Source: Candidatus Parcubacteria bacterium
GTDB taxonomy: Bacteria > Patescibacteriota > Minisyncoccia > Phycocordibacterales > UBA5272
Length of the DNA: 64,000 bases
Assembly: GCA_039796775.1 (NCBI GenBank)
Contig: JBDKJD010000001.1
Span: forward strand, 5,874 to 69,873
Reading direction: 5' to 3'
The number at the start of each line of letters is the position of its first letter. The first letter of the stretch is position 1. The translations under genes were made by a program, and so were the position numbers. Under the pieces are notes generated by a model. That model was given only the letters and a program-made list of their open reading frames with translations. It was not told the origin of the DNA and made no database searches. Positions 4,696-21,546 of the stretch are shown one piece after another.

Positions 4696-4938
4696 TTATT
4701 TTCTGAAAAGTCGTCGCAGTTTTTTATTGAACTTCTCATAAAGATGATCTAACTTTGGATATTTTTTAACAAGAGAGAGAATTTTATTCTCTAAGGTTAC
4801 ACTTTCAAAAGAGAGAATAATCACCCCAATAATCAAAAATACTGTACCGTGCACTATAGGAAATATCATTCCTAGTACTCCTAAAATAACAAATATTGAG
4901 CCGAGTGTGATATGTAGTAATTTGCGTAAGTAGTCCAT
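4696..4938 (-). CDS. Small membrane protein with two transmembrane segments, possibly YbaN/DUF454-like.
   Basis: It is 80 aa, with hydrophobic helices followed by a basic C terminus. Confidence 0.45.
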   Translation of the reverse strand: MDYLRKLLHITLGSIFVILGVLGMIFPIVHGTVFLIIGVIILSFESVTLENKILSLVKKYPKLDHLYEKFNKKLRRLFRK

Positions 4939-5582: not shown

Positions 5583-8500
5583 TTATCTATTTTGTTGATA
5601 TTCTTTAAAAATAACAATTCCGGCCCTCAGTATTTTCCATACAAAAATACATGCTGTCTTAACAATCCCAGGCTTATTCTCAAAAGCTACTGTTAGATGC
5701 GCATATTCCTTTCCTGGGAAACGATAGAATAATACTGGTATAAGGATGAGAGTGAGGATAATAGCAAATGCGAGTCCGAACATGATAGTAAATGCAAGCG
5801 GCCCCCAAAGTGTCGATACAGTTGCAAGAGGTATCATCCCAACCACTGTCGTTACTGTTGTCAAAAATATAGGTCTCAAACGAACAGCGGAAGATTCAAC
5901 AATAGCTTCCAAGAGGGAGAAGTTCTGGCTTTCTTTCTCTAGAGCTAATCGTTTCAAGATGGAGTCTAATAATATGATCGCATGATTAATAATCACTCCA
6001 GCTAAAGCAACAAGACCGAGCATAGAAGAGAATGACAATGACTGCCCGGTTAATGTGAGACCGAACAATACACCAATGAGCGAGAGGGGGATAGTGAGGA
6101 GAAGGTACATTGAATATCGTAATGAGTTAAACTCAAGAACCAAGATAGCGAGCATCCCTAGCATCCCAACAATAAGTGCTAGCCCCATTTCTTTGAACGT
6201 TCTCTGTACATCTTCATTTTCTCCCCCATACACAACTTCAACAGAGGAAGGGATATCAAGCTCGGCTTCTCTTTTTTGAAAAGCATTCACAACTTCTATT
6301 GCATTAGCCCCACCTTCTAACCCAGCCGTGATTCTCGTATAACGCTTACCATTATCATGATTGATTTCATTTTTGCTTGTGCCAAGAGATACACTCACCA
6401 GTGATCCAAGCGGAATTACTTGAGAACTATTTGTCGTTACTGGCAATTGCTTAATAGCATCAATTGTTGCAACTGAAGTATCTTCAGGATTAATAAAAGA
6501 ATTGTTGAGATCAACTTTGACGACAATGTCTATATCTTCTTCTTGTTTTGTTATCGTTGTAGCATTCACTCCGGAGACTGCGGTTCTTAATATTTGAGCC
6601 ACAGTAAGAGGATTTAACCCTACCTGTGAAGCTTTTGCTCTGTCTACTTCTATGTTGAATTGAGCACCATCATTTTTAAGTGAGGTTTCGATATTTTTTG
6701 CTCCGCCTATATCATTTAATAATGTCTCACCCTTATCTGCTAACAGTGAAAGTTCTTCGAGTGAATCTCCTTTGAAAGTGATAACAATAGGTGCGCCTGA
6801 TGGTGGGCCATTGTTACCTTGTTCTACTTTTATGAATGCACCATTAATAACTGATAGTTTTGATTCAAGATAGGGGATGAGTTCAGTTGAAGTCATTTCC
6901 TTTTCTTGTTTGAGATTAACGGTGATATTAGCTAACTTTGTATTCTGTCCTCCTCCGTTATTAGAGAATACAGATGACGCACCAACTGTTGTGATAAACG
7001 ATTCAATATAAGGCTCCTCATAAAGAATTTCTTCAACCTGTCTCACATAAAGATCAGTATCCTTAAGCGGTGTCCCTTGTGGTCGCTCAACAGAAACATA
7101 GATCGCATTCTGCTCTTCTTGTGGAAAGAACTCTACGTTTAAAAATCCAAGGACTGGTAGGAGAATTGAAGTCAAGAGAGATATTTTTAGAAAATTAAAA
7201 AACTTATTCTGAAAATTACTATTTTGTAATATCTTTCGAAGAAAATCCTTGTACCAATTCCTAGCTTTAACGAAATATTCTTCTTGAATCCTAATCAAAC
7301 GATTTTCTGACACTTCACTTGTTGTGTGTTTTTTGTCAGATAACAAAATAGCAAGAAGTGGGACCATTCCAAGAGCAACAAAAATAGACGCAATGAGAAC
7401 GAAAATAATAGTGAATGGTATTGAAGAGATAAATTGTCCTACAACTCCAGAGAGGAAAAATAGTGGGGCAAATACAGCAACAGTAGTCATTGTTCCTGCT
7501 ATAAGAGGCCAGGCGTATTCTCGTATTGAATCTTCAGCTGCCTTATAAATATCCCCATCATATTTATCTTTCTTTGTATGTATGGCTTCTGCTATTACAA
7601 TACCTGAGTCCACTAATATTCCTATCGCCAAGATAAGAGAAAATAGTGACAAGAAGTTAATAGTATTACCAGATGCATACAAGCCAATGAATGCAATCAC
7701 AAAAGAAAGCGGAATAGAGAGCCCGGCTACAATACTTTCTCGCCATCCTATTGTCAAGAAGAGCATAATCATCACCAAGATAACAGTCTCTATACCAACA
7801 CGGAATAGCTGCGTGAGATCTTTCTTCACTTCTTTACCAGCATCAAAAGAGACAACGACAGATGAATCAATAAGAAGAGATGACTTAAGTTCTTCGATTT
7901 TTGCTTTAACGTCTTCACCGATGACTGTCACGTCCCCACCTGATTTTTTGTACACATTAAGAGAGATACCGTATTTAGAAGGTTCTCCATCCAATGAAAT
8001 TCGAGAGTATGTAGTCGGTGGAGCGATACCATCAATGGTGGTAGCAATATCCTTCAAATAAATTGTTGCACCATTTGTTGTTGATATAGGTATTTGAGAC
8101 ACAGTATCAATATCTTCTATTGATCCAAAAAACTTAATAGGGTAATCAATTGAAGACACGGTAATAGTTCCAACAGGAAGAGAGCTATTAGCTGCAGAGA
8201 TAGCTTGTAAGACTTGAGGGATTGAGACATTATAGCTTGCTAATTTGTCTTTGCGTAAGATTACCTGGAATTCTCTATCTCTTACCCCAGAAAGCTCCAC
8301 CTTAGATACTCCTTTTATTTTTTCTAATTCTTTTTCTAGACTTTTACCGAGCGCTCTTAATTGAGCTGGAGCTGAGTCAGAAGAAATAGAGAAGATAAGA
8401 ATTGGCTGTTCAGAGAAATTGATTTTGTTAACAGATGGTTCCGTTGCATCTTCTGGTAACTCATTCTTAACTTTATCTACTGATTCTTTGAGCGCTGCAA

Positions 8501-14700: not shown

Positions 14701-14965
14701 ATTTGGACGAGTATTCGGCTAACCTTTACAGAGGTTCTCGTTCGCGCGATTTGTGTCAAAATAGGGTTTTATTGCCTAAAGACATCTTAATGTTATCAAA
14801 CATGAGAAGAGGAAGTCAATAAGTCGACTTACTCCTTAGTTGCAACATCTCGTGTAAAGAAGTAAGTTAGCCAGAGGGAAGTATGAGAATGCGGTGAGTG
14901 CATAAAAAGAAATCCACTGAATCACGCTGACCTTTCTTAATAAAATAAATTATCAACTTATACTA

Positions 14966-14974
14966 TGGTATAAT
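14966..14974 (+). promoter_or_regulatory. Extended -10 promoter element (TGgTATAAT).
   Basis: A perfect TGnTATAAT lies ~16 nt upstream of the ATG at 14990. Confidence 0.4.
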
Positions 14975-14989
14975 TACGTAAACAAAACT

Positions 14990-15180
14990 ATGGGGAAAGT
15001 TATACCATTTAGTCCAGAAGGAAGAAAAAAATACTTGATACTGAATCTGAAGTAAACGATACAGCTTCAAAAGATTCTAATGAACCTAAAGTTACGGGCC
15101 ACAAAAAGGCAATTGAAGAACTTTGTCAGATAATGAAACCGGGACAAGACTTTGCAAATGCGGTTCTGCGCTATTTGTGA
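14990..15180 (+). pseudogene. Small ORF interrupted at an A7 run; with one extra A it would encode a 63-aa protein.
   Basis: MGKVIPFSPEGRKK stops after 21 aa. The adjacent frame continues ..LDTESEVNDTASKDSNEPKVTGHKKAIEELCQIMKPGQDFANAVLRYL to a TGA at 15178-15180. Confidence 0.3.
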
Positions 15181-15220
15181 CCTTTGCGTAAAACGCTGTT
15201 GCCAGGTCACGTGCAATGAA

Positions 15221-15252
15221 AGCCACGGGGTCAGTTAGGGTGACAATTTAGG
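15221..15252 (+). repeat. Imperfect inverted copy of the tRNA-Asn 3' end and flank (gccacggggtCAGTTAGGGtgaca versus the minus-strand tRNA end cccacggagcCAGTTAGGGgtac).
   Basis: About 18 of 24 positions match, including an exact 9-mer. It is a candidate boundary or recombination site for the integrated element. Confidence 0.35.
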
Positions 15253-15309
15253 TCCAAATGGTACACAGGTTCAGAACTTTTAATTGGGCTAATGTAAAAA
15301 ATAGTTTTC

Positions 15310-15942
15310 TTACACAGAGTCCTCAATAACTTCTTTTGGTGACCCTAACGCCTTTGATGAACGCCAACGAAACGATCTTTCGAAAAAACCAGTCACTTCT
15401 TCAAAAATTGAATTAACATCGGATTCCGTTATCTCTTCCAAAATTTCTTCTGGATGAAGAACCTCATTTCGTGTGATTCTTGTTATTGTTCCATTAGAAA
15501 ACTGATCTTTATCTATTATATTCTTTTCATAGAGAAGTTCTAATCTTTTAAAAAGACTTAACTTTTTTTCTCCAGGGTTTTTAATCAAAGAATTAACATG
15601 GGCTTCTAGAAGTACACCACATAAAGCAACAACACTTCTATTTAAACTTGCTGACTTAGCTTTAAGTAGCTCCATATAAGTATCTTTATAGTTGTCAGGT
15701 AACCATGAAGGGATAGTGCCTACATACTCTTTTGGGAAAACTGATTTTAGATTTCTTGTTCCATTTATTCCATTAGTGTACTCAGCAACAATCACATGCC
15801 CACCCGGGCAGTAAAGAGTTTCAATACTTATGCCATTTCTTGGAGTAAAGCTAGACCTTACCTCAAAATAGCTATCCTTTCCACACCTACTACACGTCCC
15901 AGACCAAGTTGCTTGCTGGGTATTAAATTGTATTTCTTGCAT
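15310..15942 (-). CDS. Protein with an N-terminal zinc ribbon and a C-terminal DUF4145-like helical domain.
   Basis: The N terminus has CSRCG...CPGGH. The C terminus (..LFKRLELLYEKNIIDKDQFSNGTITRITRNEVLHPEE..) matches the DUF4145 pattern as I recall it. Confidence 0.5.
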   Translation of the reverse strand: MQEIQFNTQQATWSGTCSRCGKDSYFEVRSSFTPRNGISIETLYCPGGHVIVAEYTNGINGTRNLKSVFPKEYVGTIPSWLPDNYKDTYMELLKAKSASLNRSVVALCGVLLEAHVNSLIKNPGEKKLSLFKRLELLYEKNIIDKDQFSNGTITRITRNEVLHPEEILEEITESDVNSIFEEVTGFFERSFRWRSSKALGSPKEVIEDSV

Positions 15943-16139
15943 TTAAGATATTCACAGTTAAATTTTATAAGACTGTAAAAAAGATATAAATCATGATAGA
16001 GTTAAGTTAGTTAAACTAAAATATATGATCACAAGACTTCTGTTGTCGCAGGGGTCTTGTTTTCTTTTCTACAATTCAAGTGTACACAATGTAAGGTAAA
16101 AGCCATTATTTTTGTCTTATACAAGAGTGTCAATAGTTT

Positions 16140-16193
16140 GACTTGACGTCAAGTCTGTTGCATATATAATAAACCTTTATCCTATAAAGGTTT
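16140..16193. promoter_or_regulatory. Two palindromes: gacttgacgtcaagtc (16 bp, perfect) and aaaccttta-N5-taaaggttt.
   Basis: They lie in the spacer between the DUF4145 and DUF559 genes and are candidate protein-binding sites. Confidence 0.3.
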
Positions 16194-16330
16194 ATAGTGA
16201 AAGATCGCAAATCGATGTACTTCAGCGTTAACTAAAAGTATTTCCTATTTATGGTAATCCACATGTACCTTACCTCCAAGGATGTCTTTTGGTTTATGAC
16301 GCTCATCTTTAACCACAGAAACATAATGTT

Positions 16331-16681
16331 TTAGTGGTTATTTGAGATAACCTTTACTATCGCTTCTGCAATCTCTTTTGCATGTGTTTCCACTAGTATA
16401 TTCGGTATATGTTTTACAAAAATATCTTCCTTGTTTGAAAAGTAGTCTCTATGAAAATCTGCATCTATTTGTGATGCGTTAAGGTAATGCTGCGCCCCAT
16501 CAATTTCAAGAGCAATCTTTGCCTTTGGTATATAAATATCAATATGTTTGTGTCCATCCCAGTATTCAAGTTCTAGATCAACACCAAGTGCTTTAAGCTC
16601 ACTTGCTAGTAATAATGCTTGAGGTGTTGATTGTATTAGTGGCATAAAAAATAAACAACTGAAATACAAAAAGCCCACCAC
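16331..16681 (-). CDS. DUF559 / endonuclease-domain protein.
   Basis: KIALEIDGAQHY...DADFHRDYF...VKHIPN fits the DUF559 restriction-endonuclease-like fold pattern. Confidence 0.55.
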   Translation of the reverse strand: MVGFLYFSCLFFMPLIQSTPQALLLASELKALGVDLELEYWDGHKHIDIYIPKAKIALEIDGAQHYLNASQIDADFHRDYFSNKEDIFVKHIPNILVETHAKEIAEAIVKVISNNH

Positions 16682-16880
16682 GTGAGTGAGAGCTTACGCC
16701 CTCCATACCCGTTTCCAGGTACGGCCGTTCAAGACAAATCCCACATGATGGGTTTTTTATTTTGAACGGGCTTTTCACCATGCCAATATTGCTATTGGTT
16801 TAGGCTACTTGTATTCAGTTGTATCTATATAATAACGTAGAAAATGACAAAATAAAAGAAATTAAGTAGTATACAGGGCA

Positions 16881-17792
16881 ATGGAGGCTAGTAAAATTAA
16901 AACTGAATTGGAACAACTCTATAGCTTGATTCCTGAAAAAATAAAGAGAGAAGCTGAACCTCCTCTTGATTTTGCCGTCGAAAAACCGATAGATTTTCTT
17001 CGTACCTTATATAACTATGTCGACTATATTAAGAACAAGGAGTTACTACAAAAAATAATTACTGTAGAAAAAGAAAGAAAAGCGCAAGAGTTAATTAAGC
17101 TTGCAAAATCTTCCATGGAGTCTAGACACGCTCATGAACATTTTGATATCTTTCAAGATCATATCAAGGAAGAAAAAAGAAACAACGATGAGGTTGATCA
17201 AGATCCAATTTATAACTACGGGCTTCTTCTTGATGCATATGAATCTTTTGAAATAATTAAAGATTTAAAAACAGAAGAGGAAATGCGCAAATTTCCAATC
17301 GTACTAAAACGAGAATCGCCATACGGTAACTCCACAAGTAATTTTTATGGGTATGGATTATTAAACCTGGCCATGTTCAGATACCCTGAACCAGGGCATC
17401 TTCACATTTTTTTACTTAACGCGCTAAATGAACTTGAAAGAGGAAAACCATTAAACAAATATCTTGAATATGATAATGAAAATGGTGTTTTATATTTTAA
17501 TGATCAAGTAATAAAAATACGGGTTAAAAATTCACCGACAGTAGGCGCACACCTACTCCTACAATACCTTGTTAAGAATAAGCCATTTGAAAAGCATGGT
17601 TATTATGAGTTCAATGATAACAATGTTTTTCTTGATGAAAAATCAGCAAAAGCATGTCTACACATTTGTAACGATATTCAAAAAAAAGTTTTGGAAAATA
17701 CTGGAATACCTGACTTTTTGGATTACAACACCGGAGAAGATATGTATGTTCGAATTAATCCAAAACATTCTTTAAATATAACCGACAAATAA
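16881..17792 (+). CDS. Hypothetical protein of 303 aa.
   Basis: It is a long ORF with a hairpin terminator (ccgacat...atgtcgg) immediately downstream. Confidence 0.5.
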   Translation: MEASKIKTELEQLYSLIPEKIKREAEPPLDFAVEKPIDFLRTLYNYVDYIKNKELLQKIITVEKERKAQELIKLAKSSMESRHAHEHFDIFQDHIKEEKRNNDEVDQDPIYNYGLLLDAYESFEIIKDLKTEEEMRKFPIVLKRESPYGNSTSNFYGYGLLNLAMFRYPEPGHLHIFLLNALNELERGKPLNKYLEYDNENGVLYFNDQVIKIRVKNSPTVGAHLLLQYLVKNKPFEKHGYYEFNDNNVFLDEKSAKACLHICNDIQKKVLENTGIPDFLDYNTGEDMYVRINPKHSLNITDK

Positions 17793-17799
17793 CCATTCC

Positions 17800-18195
17800 G
17801 ACATGTTCCGGGAAAGATGTCGGTAACAGTGTGTCATAAAGTTGAATCATCCTAATCAAGGATGATTTTCTTTTACTAAGGGTGATTTATTGAGGGGTTT
17901 GCATTTGGCACGATACTCTCGATTACTCACTTATATAAGCAGACCTTTCGGCGGAGCGGAAAGGTCTCTAGCGTACAGCATTAAGCACACAGGCTTTTGC
18001 CTTGTCAAACTCGAACGGAGTTTACGGAGTGAGTTTGATAAGGATAAAAGCTGTGTGCTACGAGAGCATTCCCGAGCGACCGATTAAAGCGAAGGGAATG
18101 ATCTTGTGCGCGAAGCGCGTGCACAAGTGACATCCGGAGGACGGCGCGCAGTGCGTATTTGCATCTGTTGACTCGACTAAACATACACTTACGGA
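17800..18195 (+). promoter_or_regulatory. GC-rich cluster of stem-loops upstream of the Rep gene, a candidate rolling-circle origin (dso).
   Basis: Hairpins include ccgacatgttccgggaaagatgtcgg, aatcatcct-aatcaa-ggatgatt, agacctttcggcggagcggaaaggtct and cttgtgcgcgaagcgcgtgcacaag. The local GC content is well above the surrounding DNA. Confidence 0.4.
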
Positions 18196-18198
18196 GAA

Positions 18199-19068
18199 AT
18201 GAGAAATCCAATAATCTACAAAAAGAAAATAATAATCTCTGGCTCAACAGTTGAGATTCTTTCATACGAGATACCGATAACACATGGTTTTGAAATATCT
18301 CCTAAGTGGAGAGAAAAGAGGAGACTGGCGAAGTTATCGGCTAAAGCAAACCTATCAGAGCAACAATTGCAAGAACGAAGAAAAAGAAACAGAAAACTAG
18401 CCATGATACGAGCAAGTAAAACACTCATACGACTGATTGATTGTAATGTATATCAATACAAAAATACCGTAGGAAGAATCTATCTTCCTGTCTTTCTTAC
18501 GCTTACATTTAAAGAAGACGTACGAGAACAAAAAGAAGCCAATAGACTGTTTACTCTTTTCATAAAAAGACTGAACTACCATGTAAACAAAAAGATCAGA
18601 AACCCACTCAGGTATTCTGTTGTTATCGAGTTCCAAGATCTTAATCGTAAAGGGGTAATTCATTACCATACTCTTTTCTATGATCTGCCATTTATACGAA
18701 GTACAACACTAGAGAATCTCTGGGGAGAAGGTTCTATTAATATCAACAAAGTACATAAGGTTAAGAAGATTGGACTATATGTTTCTAAGTATATGTCTAA
18801 GAATTTTGAAGACCCTCGACTCGATGGACATAAACGATACTTTTCAAGTAGAGGACTTATCAAGCCTAAGACGTATGCAGGAGAGGAAGCGTACAGAATC
18901 GTTAAGTCTGTCATACCTACAGAGGTAACTGTTAAGGTGAGTAACTTTACTACTGAGAAACTTGGCAGTGTAACAAAGGAACTATTTTCTTTTCCTGAGA
19001 AGGAGCATATAGGCGAGCATATCTCCTCTGAGTTTAGGGAGTTGCTTGAGAAGTATGACATTTCCTAA
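18199..19068 (+). CDS. HUH-superfamily rolling-circle replication initiator (Rep), phiX174 gpA / RCR-plasmid type.
   Basis: Motif I is FLTLTF, motif II is HYHTLFY (HUH), and motif III is YVSKYMSK (YxxKY double tyrosine). The order and spacing are correct. Confidence 0.75.
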   Translation: MRNPIIYKKKIIISGSTVEILSYEIPITHGFEISPKWREKRRLAKLSAKANLSEQQLQERRKRNRKLAMIRASKTLIRLIDCNVYQYKNTVGRIYLPVFLTLTFKEDVREQKEANRLFTLFIKRLNYHVNKKIRNPLRYSVVIEFQDLNRKGVIHYHTLFYDLPFIRSTTLENLWGEGSININKVHKVKKIGLYVSKYMSKNFEDPRLDGHKRYFSSRGLIKPKTYAGEEAYRIVKSVIPTEVTVKVSNFTTEKLGSVTKELFSFPEKEHIGEHISSEFRELLEKYDIS

Positions 19069-19212
19069 TCAAGTTATTAAAACTGAAGCGACTTCTAGTG
19101 TGGTTACAGATGAAGATATCAAGAAGCTCGCAAAACTGTATGCATGGCTTATAAAGGAGCACAAAAAGCAAAATCCTGACTTATACAAAAAGAAGGAGTA
19201 TAATTAGAAATT

Positions 19213-19983
19213 ATGAAAACAAAGCTTCAGAAAATTAAAAATTGGATTGTAAGAGACGATCTCGATCTTAGTGCTAAATGGTGGCATAGATTACTTAAGG
19301 TTCTTTTTATAATATCTTATTTATTGGTAGCATTTTATTTTTTGAATCTACTTGCAAACTCATACTCAAGTATAATTAATAGATGGGTTTTTGCTGATGT
19401 GTTATCTTCAAGATTACTTAAACCAGAGTATACAGGCAAAGTCTTTTCTATCTATGAACTACAAAAAGACAACGAGGTAATAAGTACACTAGATCAGGTA
19501 TATTCTAAAGATGGATATAGTCCGAGTTTAGAAGCAAAAGAAACACTGAGACCTTATTCATCGCTATTTCTAGTGAGCAACCCTCCAGTTCAAAGTTTCT
19601 GTTCAGACAAACTTCCTGAAAAAGTTAAAGATATTGCTCTAATGAACAACATTAAATTTTTTTCAGATGAGAACCCAAGATTTGATAAGCTCACAAATAA
19701 TATTGATTCTTTTATTTCCTATCTTGACAGTAAATCATTTACTATCAAGTGTGTTATGGTTGATAGTTATACAATAGTTAATAATGACAGCACAGAGTCT
19801 ACATATAAGTTTTTGAGGCCGGTCAATACATACGATTACTCGATCTTCAGATATGAAGACGGTAAATTACTTTTGTTACTTGCAATTGTAATAGGCGTTT
19901 TCTTTTATTTTATTTCTATTTTTATATGTCTAGTTATTTATTACAAAATAATACTTTATATAGTTTTTGGTAGCAAAAAATAA
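19213..19983 (+). CDS. Hypothetical membrane protein with N- and C-terminal transmembrane segments.
   Basis: It is 256 aa. Its stop is adjacent to the recombinase start (taaATG). Confidence 0.5.
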   Translation: MKTKLQKIKNWIVRDDLDLSAKWWHRLLKVLFIISYLLVAFYFLNLLANSYSSIINRWVFADVLSSRLLKPEYTGKVFSIYELQKDNEVISTLDQVYSKDGYSPSLEAKETLRPYSSLFLVSNPPVQSFCSDKLPEKVKDIALMNNIKFFSDENPRFDKLTNNIDSFISYLDSKSFTIKCVMVDSYTIVNNDSTESTYKFLRPVNTYDYSIFRYEDGKLLLLLAIVIGVFFYFISIFICLVIYYKIILYIVFGSKK

Positions 19984-21513
19984 ATGAAAGCAATTATCGT
20001 AGCAAGAGTCTCCACAGACGAACAGAAAGAAAATTCTCCTGATGCTCAGATATACAGAATGGAGAGATACTGCGAGAATAAAAATCTAACTATTATTGAA
20101 AGGTTCAGCTTTGTTGAGAGCGCTTACAAAACTAAACGTGATGAATTCGATAAAATCTTATCATCGGTAAAGAGCACAAAAGAAAGAGTTGCTATTTGCT
20201 TTGACAAAGTTGACCGACTCTCTAGAAACATATTCGACAAGCGAGTAGCTTTGCTGTACGAGAAAGCTATTAATAATGATATTGAACTTCACTTTGTTTC
20301 TGATGGTCAGGTGATAGACAGTAACATCTCTGCGGGTGATAAATTTGCCTTTGGAATGAAGCTTGGTCTTTCTAAATACTATTCAGATGCGATCAGCGAT
20401 AACGTGAAGCGTGCATTTGAACAAAAGCGAAGAAATGGTGAATGGACTGGTAGTGTACGACTCGGGTATCTTAACGTTACCTTAGACGAAAGCAAGAGAC
20501 TTCGAAAGGATATTATTGTTGACCCTGAAAGAGGGCACCTCATAGTTAGAATGTTTGAACTCTACGCTACAGGACTATATTCACTAGAAACTATTCGTCT
20601 ACAAATGATCGATCTCGGACTAAGGACACTCAAAGGTAACAAGCCTTCAAAGAGCGGTATTGAGAATCTTCTTAAGGATAGCTTTTATTGTGGTGTTGCT
20701 ATGTCTCCTAAATATGGAAACTTTCACCACAAGTACCCAAGACTTATCTCAAGAGAACTTTTTGATCAATGTCAAGATATACGAAATGGACGCAACCTTC
20801 GTAAACATAAGTCTGTATCTAAGGAAGTTCTCTTTAAAGGACTTATTACTTGTGATCGTTGTGGTTGTACCATGACACCAGAAATAAAAAGGAAACCTAG
20901 TGGTAAGGAATATGTATTCTATTCTTGTACCAATGCCAAGAAGATATGCGAAAGGATATATGTTAATGAGAAGGAGCTTCTTAAGCCAATTTATGACATT
21001 CTAGACAGATTCCAATCTATATCCCAAGAGACACAGGACAGACTAATTAAGGAACTCAAATCAACCAATCAAGTAGAATCTGATTTTCATAAAGCGCAGA
21101 TTTCCAGAATTAACAGTGAACTTGATATGATCAAAATAAAGCAAGATAAGCTTCTAGACGCATACCTAGATGAGCGTGTTACAGAGGAACAATTTAGCCA
21201 AAAGCAAAAAGAGTATTCTCGTCAGACAGGATTACTTGAGATTGAAGCTAGTGAGTACAGAAAGGGGGATTTTAGCTATCAAGATACCGTAGCTCAAATA
21301 ATTACAATATCTCGAGAAGCAAAGGATATTTTTGAGAAGAGTTCTGATGTTGCCGGAAAACGTGCTTTTATCAATTCACTAATTCAGAACCCGACCGTAA
21401 ATAAGAAAAAGCTATGTTTTACCATAGCTTCTCCTTATAATTTAGTACTAGAACTTGCTAGTACCCCTAACTGGCTCCGTGGGCAGGGATCGAACCTGCG
21501 ACCAACTCGTTAA
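19984..21513 (+). CDS. Large serine recombinase with a resolvase/invertase catalytic domain, a recombinase domain, a zinc ribbon and a coiled coil.
   Basis: The N terminus is MKAIIVARVSTDEQ (catalytic Ser). A Cys cluster (CDRCGCTMTPE...YSCTN) is present. Its 3' end overlaps the tRNA-Asn gene by 42 nt on the opposite strand. Confidence 0.85.
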   Translation: MKAIIVARVSTDEQKENSPDAQIYRMERYCENKNLTIIERFSFVESAYKTKRDEFDKILSSVKSTKERVAICFDKVDRLSRNIFDKRVALLYEKAINNDIELHFVSDGQVIDSNISAGDKFAFGMKLGLSKYYSDAISDNVKRAFEQKRRNGEWTGSVRLGYLNVTLDESKRLRKDIIVDPERGHLIVRMFELYATGLYSLETIRLQMIDLGLRTLKGNKPSKSGIENLLKDSFYCGVAMSPKYGNFHHKYPRLISRELFDQCQDIRNGRNLRKHKSVSKEVLFKGLITCDRCGCTMTPEIKRKPSGKEYVFYSCTNAKKICERIYVNEKELLKPIYDILDRFQSISQETQDRLIKELKSTNQVESDFHKAQISRINSELDMIKIKQDKLLDAYLDERVTEEQFSQKQKEYSRQTGLLEIEASEYRKGDFSYQDTVAQIITISREAKDIFEKSSDVAGKRAFINSLIQNPTVNKKKLCFTIASPYNLVLELASTPNWLRGQGSNLRPTR

Positions 21514-21546
21514 CAGCGAGCTGCTCTACCGCTGAGCTACCACGGA
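21472..21546 (-). tRNA. tRNA-Asn (anticodon GTT).
   Basis: A manual cloverleaf gives: acceptor TCCGTGG/CCACGGA, D arm GCTC-AGCGGTA-GAGC, anticodon stem with loop CTGTTAA, T arm GCAGG-TTCGATC-CCTGC, discriminator G, encoded CCA. Confidence 0.9.

Follow-up and report, generated by a model that had tools for sequence, protein, structure and literature searches.

The 64,000-nucleotide stretch of contig JBDKJD010000001.1 analysed here (hereafter the window) belongs to a metagenome-assembled genome (MAG) of Candidatus Parcubacteria and carries, at positions 15256–21478, a 6,223-bp element integrated at the 3' end of a tRNA-Asn(GTT) gene. The tRNA gene (21472–21546, minus strand) was called by ARAGORN and scores 69.7 bits against the Rfam tRNA model. 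A 509-aa open reading frame (ORF; 19984–21513, plus strand; N terminus MKAIIVARVSTDEQ) ends inside it with an overlap of 42 nt (21472–21513), and upstream of this ORF lies a 289-aa ORF (18199–19068, plus strand) containing VFLTLTF, IHYHTLFY and YVSKYMSK, whose product is deposited for the MAG as a hypothetical protein. Together with five further genes these make up seven ORFs, all intact with catalytic motifs. The element is flanked by ordinary housekeeping genes of the host, which on the left encode an ABC transporter and an alcohol dehydrogenase (ADH) of the zinc type and on the right comprise a hibernation factor, a cyclophilin, fmt and def. A first-pass annotation had described these ORFs, motifs and the 42-nt overlap as we find them and had proposed an integrated element at tRNA-Asn, which is borne out by the attachment (att) sites and the preserved tRNA gene; its left end, 15221, was about 30 nt away from the true one at 15249–15256.

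Profile searches identified the 509-aa protein as a complete large serine recombinase (LSR) with predicted integrase activity. Resolvase PF00239 (2.6e-21, residues 3–154, full-length model), Recombinase PF07508 (4.5e-12) and Zn_ribbon_recom PF13408 (6.4e-9) all match, so that the resolvase-type N terminus and Zn ribbon noted on first reading are both confirmed, and the catalytic serine is S10 within ARVSTDEQ. The protein also matches PHROG integrase family phrog_95 (1e-71) and is 72–82% identical to the LSRs of three sibling elements, L101, L105 and L104, while no relatives were found in IMG/VR.

The ends of the element could be mapped through sibling L104 (Logan contig, SRR20718605), whose 6,180 nt include a 30-nt terminal overlap (k−1, k = 31) located inside the LSR gene. 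Because the contig passes this junction without a branch and carries the terminal overlap, L104 is a closed free circle of 6,150 bp and not an integrated copy. Its gene set is that of the window element, comprising an LSR, a homologue of the 256-aa protein, a rolling-circle replication initiator (Rep), a small ORF and a relative of the 303-aa protein. The two Reps are 49% identical and the 256-aa membrane proteins, located at the same position, 45%, while identity between the LSRs is 82% over residues 1–280 and 58% over residues 275–499.

Similarity between L104 and the window stops exactly at 21478. The attP of L104 reads ...GCTAGTCAC CCTAAC TGGCTCC AACTG GTGTACAGATTCAGAAC..., the right junction of the window ...GCTAGTACC CCTAAC TGGCTCC GTGGGCAGGG (tRNA), and its left junction ...GGGTGACAATT TAGGTCC AAATG GTACACAGGTTCAGAAC.... 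In L105, which is likewise integrated at tRNA-Asn, attL reads ...TTTTAATT TGGCTCC AACTG GTACACAAGTTCAGAAC and attR ...CACCCTAAT TGGCTCG GTGGGTAGGG. Alignment of the window with L104, L105, L101, L007 and L002 places the attR core TGGCTCC at 21472–21478, where it complements the final 7 nt of the tRNA-Asn gene, CCA included, and the attL core TAGGTCC at 15249–15255, as the displaced counterpart of the tRNA 3'-terminal TGGCTCC. The P arm before the attR core ends ...GCTAGTACCCCTAAC at 21471, and the P' arm, a conserved left-end motif (AAATGGTACACAGGTTCAGAACTTTTAATTGG, 15256–15290, plus strand), is kept in the L104 attP and in the attL sites of L105, L101, L007 and L002. From these junctions we predict ...GCTAGTACCCCTAACTGG(C)TCCAAATGGTACACAGGTTCAGAAC as the attP of the window element and ...GGGTGACAATTTAGGCTCCGTGGGCAGGGATCG, or the same with TGGCTCC, as the attB. 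The shared core comprises at most 7 nt (TGGCTCC), a short att site of the LSR type, and no longer direct repeat of the tRNA 3' end was found in the window; a dyad GTACC...GGTAC flanks the core and centres the reconstructed attP on GG/GC of TGGCTCC. The window sites can be read in two ways, either as a 7-nt core whose attL copy later acquired two mutations or as identity at GG only. The aligned junctions place recombination within or next to the TGG of the tRNA CCA end, and the last tRNA nucleotides are re-supplied by the element, leaving the tRNA intact. A distant LSR at tRNA-Leu in L004 follows the same att logic with a core TGTGCC.

The attP lies within the LSR gene itself. In the L104 circle the ORF runs 110 nt past the core to give 533 aa, while in the window it runs across attR and terminates after 35 nt of host tRNA sequence. 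The integrated LSR reads into antisense tRNA sequence and ends ...PNWLRGQGSNLRPTR followed by the stop codon (509 aa), and the reconstructed excised form would end ...PNWLQMVHRFRTFNWANVKNSFLTQSPQ before its stop (predicted 522 aa), so that integration swaps the C-terminal tail. The P' arm would in the excised form encode the tail QMVHRFRTFNW, and the pattern V-H-[RK]-F-R-T-[FYL]-[NDS]-W is encoded in the window, L104, L105, L101, L007 and two copies in L002. The variable columns of this motif spread evenly over codon positions 1, 2 and 3 (5/5/6), and constraint on the protein is therefore not separable from constraint on an LSR-binding site. That the tail swap matters for directionality is speculation.

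Several remnants adjoin the att sites. An inverted attR-like remnant (15223–15248) lies directly outside attL and consists of CCACGGGGTCA, which is the tRNA-Asn 3' end with its sense on the plus strand, and GTTAGGGTGAC, the reverse complement of an L104/L105-type P arm (identical at 11 of 11 positions to the reverse complement of GTCACCCTAAC, the P arm of L104), followed by AATT. This 22-nt inverted "mini-attR" may be a scar left by a previous integration in the opposite orientation or by an inversion that the LSR mediated; similar inverted tRNA-3'-like pieces and terminator hairpins flank attL in L105 and L007. The same region contains an 18-nt inverted repeat (I23; 15223–15240 against 21465–21482, 16/18 matches), which we considered as the P' and P arms of attP and rejected, as the L104 attP puts the repeat just outside the element. 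Further left, the ADH gene and the att region are separated by about 460 nt (14760–15222) with no ORF of at least 50 aa and only one short, interrupted reading frame starting at 14991; the gap is unusually long for this compact genome and may be a residue of older insertions.

Comparable traces were observed at sibling loci. In L004, a tandem array at tRNA-Leu(CAA) (7452–7855 and 4697–4785) repeats the final 250 nt of the LSR gene at 83–85% identity together with a tRNA 3' fragment, and also contains another tRNA fragment and a duplicate of the left-end (P') region, a structure that indicates repeated integrations and decay at one site. A 17-nt direct repeat in L007 (2536–2552), initially taken for attL, was superseded by the real attL at about 2724–2731; the repeat represents an older tRNA fragment with TCGGTCACGAA attached, and L004 contains this junction too. 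At these two places (L007 2536–2563 and L004 7839–7866), Asn and Leu tRNA 3' fragments are both joined at the T-stem to TCGGTCACGAA, which has the appearance of an attL belonging to another, unrelated integrative family that targets the tRNA T-loop region in the same hosts. The three independent assemblies of the Logan contigs L001, L101 and L105 break 14–17 nt past the LSR stop, inside the tRNA; this is compatible with heterogeneity of the att site in the population or equally with tRNA sequence common to co-assembled species, and it was not used as evidence. A search of the JGI metagenomes with the attP pattern returned only one scar-like locus, present on three contigs (L106–L108: Ga0076071_128, C687J39217_1002367 and Ga0208246_1000192), where the exact attP-like junction CCCTAAC TGGCTCC ACATA GTATACAAATTCAGAAC lies within a 56.8-kb contig that has neither Rep nor LSR in its vicinity. 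Judged by eye from translations, its P' side encodes a helix-turn-helix protein, a putative restriction enzyme, a methyltransferase-like and a LexA-like protein, and the junction is possibly a stranded cargo module or scar.

The 289-aa protein matches Pfam PF23343 (REP_ORF2-G2P, Replication-associated protein ORF2/G2P) at 2.2e-20, with 73 bits against a cut-off of 27.8, and the PHROG rolling-circle initiator families phrog_3584 (5e-19) and phrog_3419. Its motifs follow the HUH order, with FLTLTF at residues 99–104, HYH at 155–157 and YVSKY at 194–198, and alignment of 31 Rep homologues revealed F99, T101, T103, F104, H155, H157, Y194 and K197 to be invariant and Y198 nearly so. An AlphaFold (AF2) model (pLDDT 89.6) retrieved with Foldseek the HUH nuclease domains of the Reps of tomato yellow leaf curl virus (TYLCV; probability 0.97), porcine circovirus 2 (PCV2) and Vientovirus, with probabilities of 0.8–0.97 overall and weak E-values; a search of the Rep profile against PDB sequences gave nothing meaningful. 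We conclude that the protein is a genuine HUH rolling-circle Rep of superfamily I with two tyrosines, for which nicking activity is predicted. The three motifs had been recognised in the right order from the letters alone, and the profile match, the near-invariant residues and the fold hits show that they are not coincidental. Assignment to phiX174 gpA or Microviridae VP4, also made at that stage, is ruled out, as Phage_GPA gave no match at E ≤ 0.1 in Pfam and the best family is PF23343; only the two-tyrosine motif resembles phiX.

Relatives of the Rep fall into three groups. The first comprises 1.5–1.8-kb rolling-circle plasmids of Brevibacillus, Geobacillus and Clostridium, in which the Rep homologue is the only replication gene, together with 5–7-kb plasmids of Bacillus and Fusobacterium (34–40% identity throughout). 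The second consists of inoviruses of the candidate phyla radiation (CPR, Patescibacteria) with 38–40% identity, among them three IMG/VR contigs of 6.7–9.3 kb, with the gene order small transmembrane proteins, 400–500-aa protein, Zot (PF05707, 4e-8), Rep, tyrosine integrase. Elements of Collinsella and Firmicutes form the third (31–33% identity); these encode an FtsK/SpoIIIE protein and a tyrosine integrase and resemble AICEs, the integrative and conjugative elements of actinomycetes. The RepSA domain PF20199 (pSAM2) was also found in many more distant matches, while the matches of a tblastn search of phages were limited to a plectrovirus Rep from Spiroplasma and to uncultured viruses with small genomes. 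Judged from these alignments, one Rep lineage is common to plasmids, filamentous phages and conjugative elements.

To place the window element within this lineage, the Rep alignment was scanned against one genome per GTDB species, yielding 80 loci, to which contigs with closer homologues were added. The closest loci are nearly all from Patescibacteria (Nomura-, Taylor-, Morani- and Magasanikiibacteria, Paceibacterota, Saccharibacteria and Minisyncoccia). Immediately downstream of rep, 33 further loci, mostly from Patescibacteria, encode an LSR, and 23 of these LSR ORFs terminate within the 3' end of a convergently oriented tRNA gene, with nine specificities among the targets (Leu, Glu, Asn, Ala, Asp, Pro, Gln, Ser and Gly). 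Clustering of ORFs around Rep revealed a conserved order c5-(c4)-Rep-(small)-LSR, the core consisting of a 225–310-aa c5 protein, a small ORF of about 64 aa, Rep, a second small ORF of about 55–60 aa and the LSR, with variable genes upstream of the core or between rep and LSR. The window element itself is a mosaic of modules common to different siblings: in DNA comparisons, its LOOT RNA and nuclease-fold gene are 84% identical to L018, the origin region and rep 71% to L002, and the LSR 72–76% to L101, L104 and L105. The element is thus neither an isolated curiosity nor a chance degenerate form, the latter an option named at first, but a member of a compact conserved family.

Among the Rep loci examined, the LSR never occurs together with Zot, FtsK or a tyrosine integrase; Zot was found in eight related loci, and an FtsK/SpoIIIE-type Tra protein in 13 distant ones, e.g. 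in Collinsella, and is absent from the window element and all LSR-type loci. Because of this mutual exclusion, the LSR-type elements are best described, at the level of gene content, as a distinct, compact lifestyle built on a Rep lineage common to plasmids, phages and conjugative elements. The same distribution bears on the idea of an integrative mobilizable element (IME), in which the HUH Rep would act mainly as a relaxase at an oriT and the element would hijack a conjugation or type IV pilus apparatus for its transfer, in the way of Rep-related relaxases in IMEs and ICEs of streptococci. IMEs pairing serine integrases with relaxases resembling rolling-circle Reps are documented in Firmicutes (PMC5704250), and more distant Reps of the present set stand next to FtsK-type Tra proteins in Collinsella and Firmicutes. 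However, no LSR-type locus contains a coupling protein, FtsK or type IV secretion system (T4SS) gene, and the characterised proteins nearest to this Rep serve the replication of tiny plasmids, so we regard this alternative as very unlikely.

Similarly improbable appears a degenerate inovirus or microvirus that has lost its structural genes and is decaying in place. Neither capsid, scaffold, Zot nor FtsK gave a signal in the element ORFs with Pfam or PHROGs, in agreement with the early statement that this is not a complete microvirus prophage, and the absence of structural genes, the imperfect attL, the att remnants adjoining the element, the decayed tandem copies in L004 and a frameshifted LSR in L007 would all suit such a remnant. 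Yet the seven ORFs are intact, the same architecture without structural genes recurs in more than 30 species-level genomes and in the closed 6.15-kb circle, Microviridae markers are missing, and the Rep stands outside the phiX family.

Upstream of rep, the 303-aa protein (16881–17792, plus strand) defines the c5 family, which occurs in 14 loci, exclusively in elements of the LSR type and in every case immediately upstream of Rep, and is sparse in the word-indexed database (4–7 hits). Three of 21 family members match Trans_reg_C (best 1.3e-8). The AF2 model (pLDDT 70, built on seven sequences) features a helical N-terminal part and a C-terminal domain of the form beta3-alpha-beta-alpha-alpha-hairpin, for which Foldseek returned PhoB (probability 0.95, TMt 0.63) as well as VicR, SaeR and YycF (probabilities 0.85–0.95, TMt about 0.6). 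We read the protein as a candidate OmpR/PhoB-type winged-helix DNA-binding regulator or accessory factor. Between this gene and rep, a region of about 240 nt (17961–18198, plus strand) is conserved in L002, L004, L104, L018 and L105 according to nhmmer. It contains a 28-bp hairpin (17984–18059), with compensatory double changes in 17 of 56 predicted pairs, and the surrounding 406-nt intergenic region folds far better as single-stranded DNA (ssDNA) than shuffled sequences (z = −6.85). The structured region is a candidate replication origin (double-strand and/or single-strand origin, dso/sso).

A long conserved hairpin upstream of rep could also serve as a packaging signal if the element were a satellite of CPR filamentous phages, having kept Rep and origin and having its ssDNA packaged and exported by a co-resident Zot-encoding inovirus, in the manner of RS1 and TLC-phi in Vibrio. 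Such a relationship is suggested by the 38–40% identical Reps of bona fide CPR inoviruses, by a shared layout in which Rep is followed by an integrase at the end, with the whole morphogenesis block missing from the LSR-type elements, and by the report of inoviruses in CPR (Roux et al. 2019, PMC6813254). On the other hand, no helper inovirus is present in the 64-kb window, the origin-region profile gave no hits in Zot-type loci, and the Rep is as similar to those of small plasmids as to those of inoviruses. We consider a satellite lifestyle unlikely.

The remaining genes appear to be accessory. A 53-aa ORF (19046–19207, plus strand), without a transmembrane segment as judged by eye, is conserved in L104, L105, L101–L103 and L007, and most family members have a small ORF at this place, making it a candidate accessory or directionality factor. 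It is followed by the gene for the 256-aa cargo protein (19213–19983, plus strand), which features N- and C-terminal transmembrane segments and two conserved cysteines and belongs to a family with 58 cluster representatives that matches neither Pfam nor a phage structural family in PHROGs. At the left end, the 210-aa zinc-ribbon cargo protein (15310–15942, minus strand) is confirmed as a DUF4145 protein (Pfam 3.8e-7; phrog_1305 8e-15), has no homologue in sibling loci and gave a weak PADLOC match to PD-T7-4 (1e-4), making it a candidate defence gene. The early DUF559 call on the 116-aa protein (16331–16681, minus strand) holds only below the threshold (0.0032, 17.7 bits against a cut-off of 20.6), so that its nuclease-fold label is weak; a 91% identical copy is located at the same position in L018, and relatives are present in L019, L023 and L041. 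Cargo of siblings includes a DNA methylase with a HinfI-type endonuclease between rep and LSR in L101/L102 and ThsB-TIR with DUF2726 in L105.

Directly upstream of the 116-aa ORF, and co-oriented with it, lies a full-length covariance-model match to the LOOT RNA (Rfam RF03000; 16688–16806, minus strand; 85.7 bits against a gathering score of 46.4), which together with the tRNA is the only Rfam hit in the window. LOOT was detected in 15 of 94 sources, namely the window and 14 Rep loci: L018 (2529–2647), L100 (6101–6220), L105 (2064–2180) and L007 (5440–5564), as well as L019, L023, L041, L006, L010, L011, L016, L028, L051 and L059. In nearly all cases it immediately precedes a DUF559/DUF2726 nuclease-fold gene and shares its orientation, irrespective of strand. 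In L051 it precedes a gene of the 303-aa family, and in L011 it is located about 6 kb from rep. As its orientation tracks the downstream gene and not rep, a role as leader or small RNA looks more likely than one as origin.

Taken together, we interpret 15256–21478 as the integrated copy of a small, site-specific integrative rolling-circle replicon from a family widespread in Patescibacteria, and assign this interpretation a probability of roughly three in four. "Integrative rolling-circle replicon" had been among the early proposals and is the best reading, now that a free 6.15-kb sibling circle exists. By homology with characterised systems, the LSR, probably with a directionality factor, would excise the element as a 6.2-kb circle. 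Rep would nick the origin in the hairpin-rich region upstream of rep and drive rolling-circle replication via an ssDNA intermediate, as its homologues do in the 1.5–1.8-kb Firmicute plasmids, with the 303-aa winged-helix protein possibly regulating or assisting replication. The element has no virion (Zot or coat) or conjugation (FtsK or T4SS) genes, and its spread would therefore depend on something external, be it a helper inovirus, competence for natural uptake or vertical inheritance. The variable slots would be filled by accessory genes, represented here by DUF4145, LOOT with the nuclease-fold protein, and the membrane protein, and in siblings by restriction-modification (R-M) genes and ThsB-TIR.

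Several observations weigh against interpreting the locus as an active replicon. Replication, nicking site, excision and transfer are argued from homology only, and the circular sibling could in principle be a non-replicating excision product. The attL and attR cores of the window copy differ at two of seven positions, and this copy might be old or locked in; an inverted attR-like remnant abuts attL, and the GC content of the element is not distinct from its surroundings. The early proposal to look for an empty tRNA-Asn site and a circular form succeeded in part: a circle was obtained for the sibling L104 only, while the empty-site pattern gave 0 matches in the JGI metagenomes, and no circular form of the window copy was found with the attP pattern in the JGI metagenomes and IMG/VR (0 matches in the latter).

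A further-reaching view, which we offer tentatively and consider doubtful as a whole, would see in these elements a class of rolling-circle episomes, self-integrating and phylum-wide among CPR bacteria, without transfer functions of their own, spreading as helper-dependent ssDNA satellites of inoviruses or by competence. The attP-split LSR isoforms could act as a directionality switch, the LSR would have radiated to the CCA end of at least nine tRNA specificities, LOOT would be a regulatory part, and the family would provide the first defined plasmid-like replicon and integration system of CPR. CPR bacteria make up a large share of bacterial diversity, and to our knowledge almost no plasmids and no genetic tools have been described for them. 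The natural module of attP, tRNA attB, LSR, Rep and candidate origin is a plausible starting point for CPR vectors, and LSRs diversified over many tRNA 3' ends represent a natural experiment in the target specificity of serine integrases. Beyond this, the Rep family links plasmid, filamentous phage and conjugative element lifestyles, the orphan LOOT RNA gains a genetic context, and the family appears to move genes of defence type (R-M, ThsB-TIR, DUF4145) between ultra-small bacteria.

Among known systems, AICEs share with the window element a small size, integration at a tRNA 3' end and, as predicted for the window element, excision and rolling-circle replication by a Rep with a phiX-like two-tyrosine motif (RepSA), whose domain PF20199 is also carried by distant members of the present Rep family. 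Some mycobacterial AICEs with RepSA-type Reps even use serine recombinases at tRNA-Leu, although integration of serine recombinases into tRNA genes has been called rare (Ghinet et al. 2011, PMC3218068). Of the features that define an AICE, the window element possesses an integrase, a rolling-circle Rep and the tRNA 3' end location and lacks Tra; AICEs encode an FtsK/SpoIIIE Tra for conjugation of double-stranded DNA and usually a tyrosine integrase with Xis, whereas the CPR elements are without Tra, half the size and from another phylum. Integrative filamentous phages likewise combine an inovirus- or plasmid-type rolling-circle Rep with a site-specific recombinase at a tRNA 3' end, as seen in CPR inoviruses and in phiRSM1, which uses a serine recombinase at tRNA-Ser (PMC3218068), and both serine and tyrosine recombinases have been reported in inoviruses (PMC6813254). 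In contrast to the window element and its LSR-type siblings, from which Zot is absent, inoviruses encode a Zot/pI ATPase, coat and adsorption proteins, and the CPR inoviruses of our set use tyrosine integrases. The 1.5–1.8-kb Firmicute plasmids share the Rep family (34–40% identity over 70–87% of the protein), with Rep and origin forming the whole replicon, and differ in having neither integration nor a recombinase. RS1 and TLC-phi of Vibrio cholerae are also small integrated elements with a rolling-circle Rep, a few small genes and no morphogenesis genes; they integrate at dif by means of the host XerCD and have a proven helper, while the window element has a self-encoded LSR, a tRNA target and no known helper. 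The ssrA islands of Dehalococcoides have a serine integrase that targets a tRNA-like gene at its 3' end and restores this gene on insertion (PMC3146451), although these are larger cargo islands. The full-text literature searched, with partial coverage and hence no proof of absence, yielded no description of the Rep-LSR family. The first-pass suggestion that Rep, serine integrase and tRNA target might define an undescribed class goes too far, since phiRSM1, the mycobacterial AICEs and the serine recombinases of inoviruses show that the combination itself is not categorically new. What is new is the compact Rep-LSR element without transfer or virion module and its broad distribution in Patescibacteria, together with the LSR-embedded attP at the tRNA CCA end and the associated winged-helix gene and LOOT RNA.

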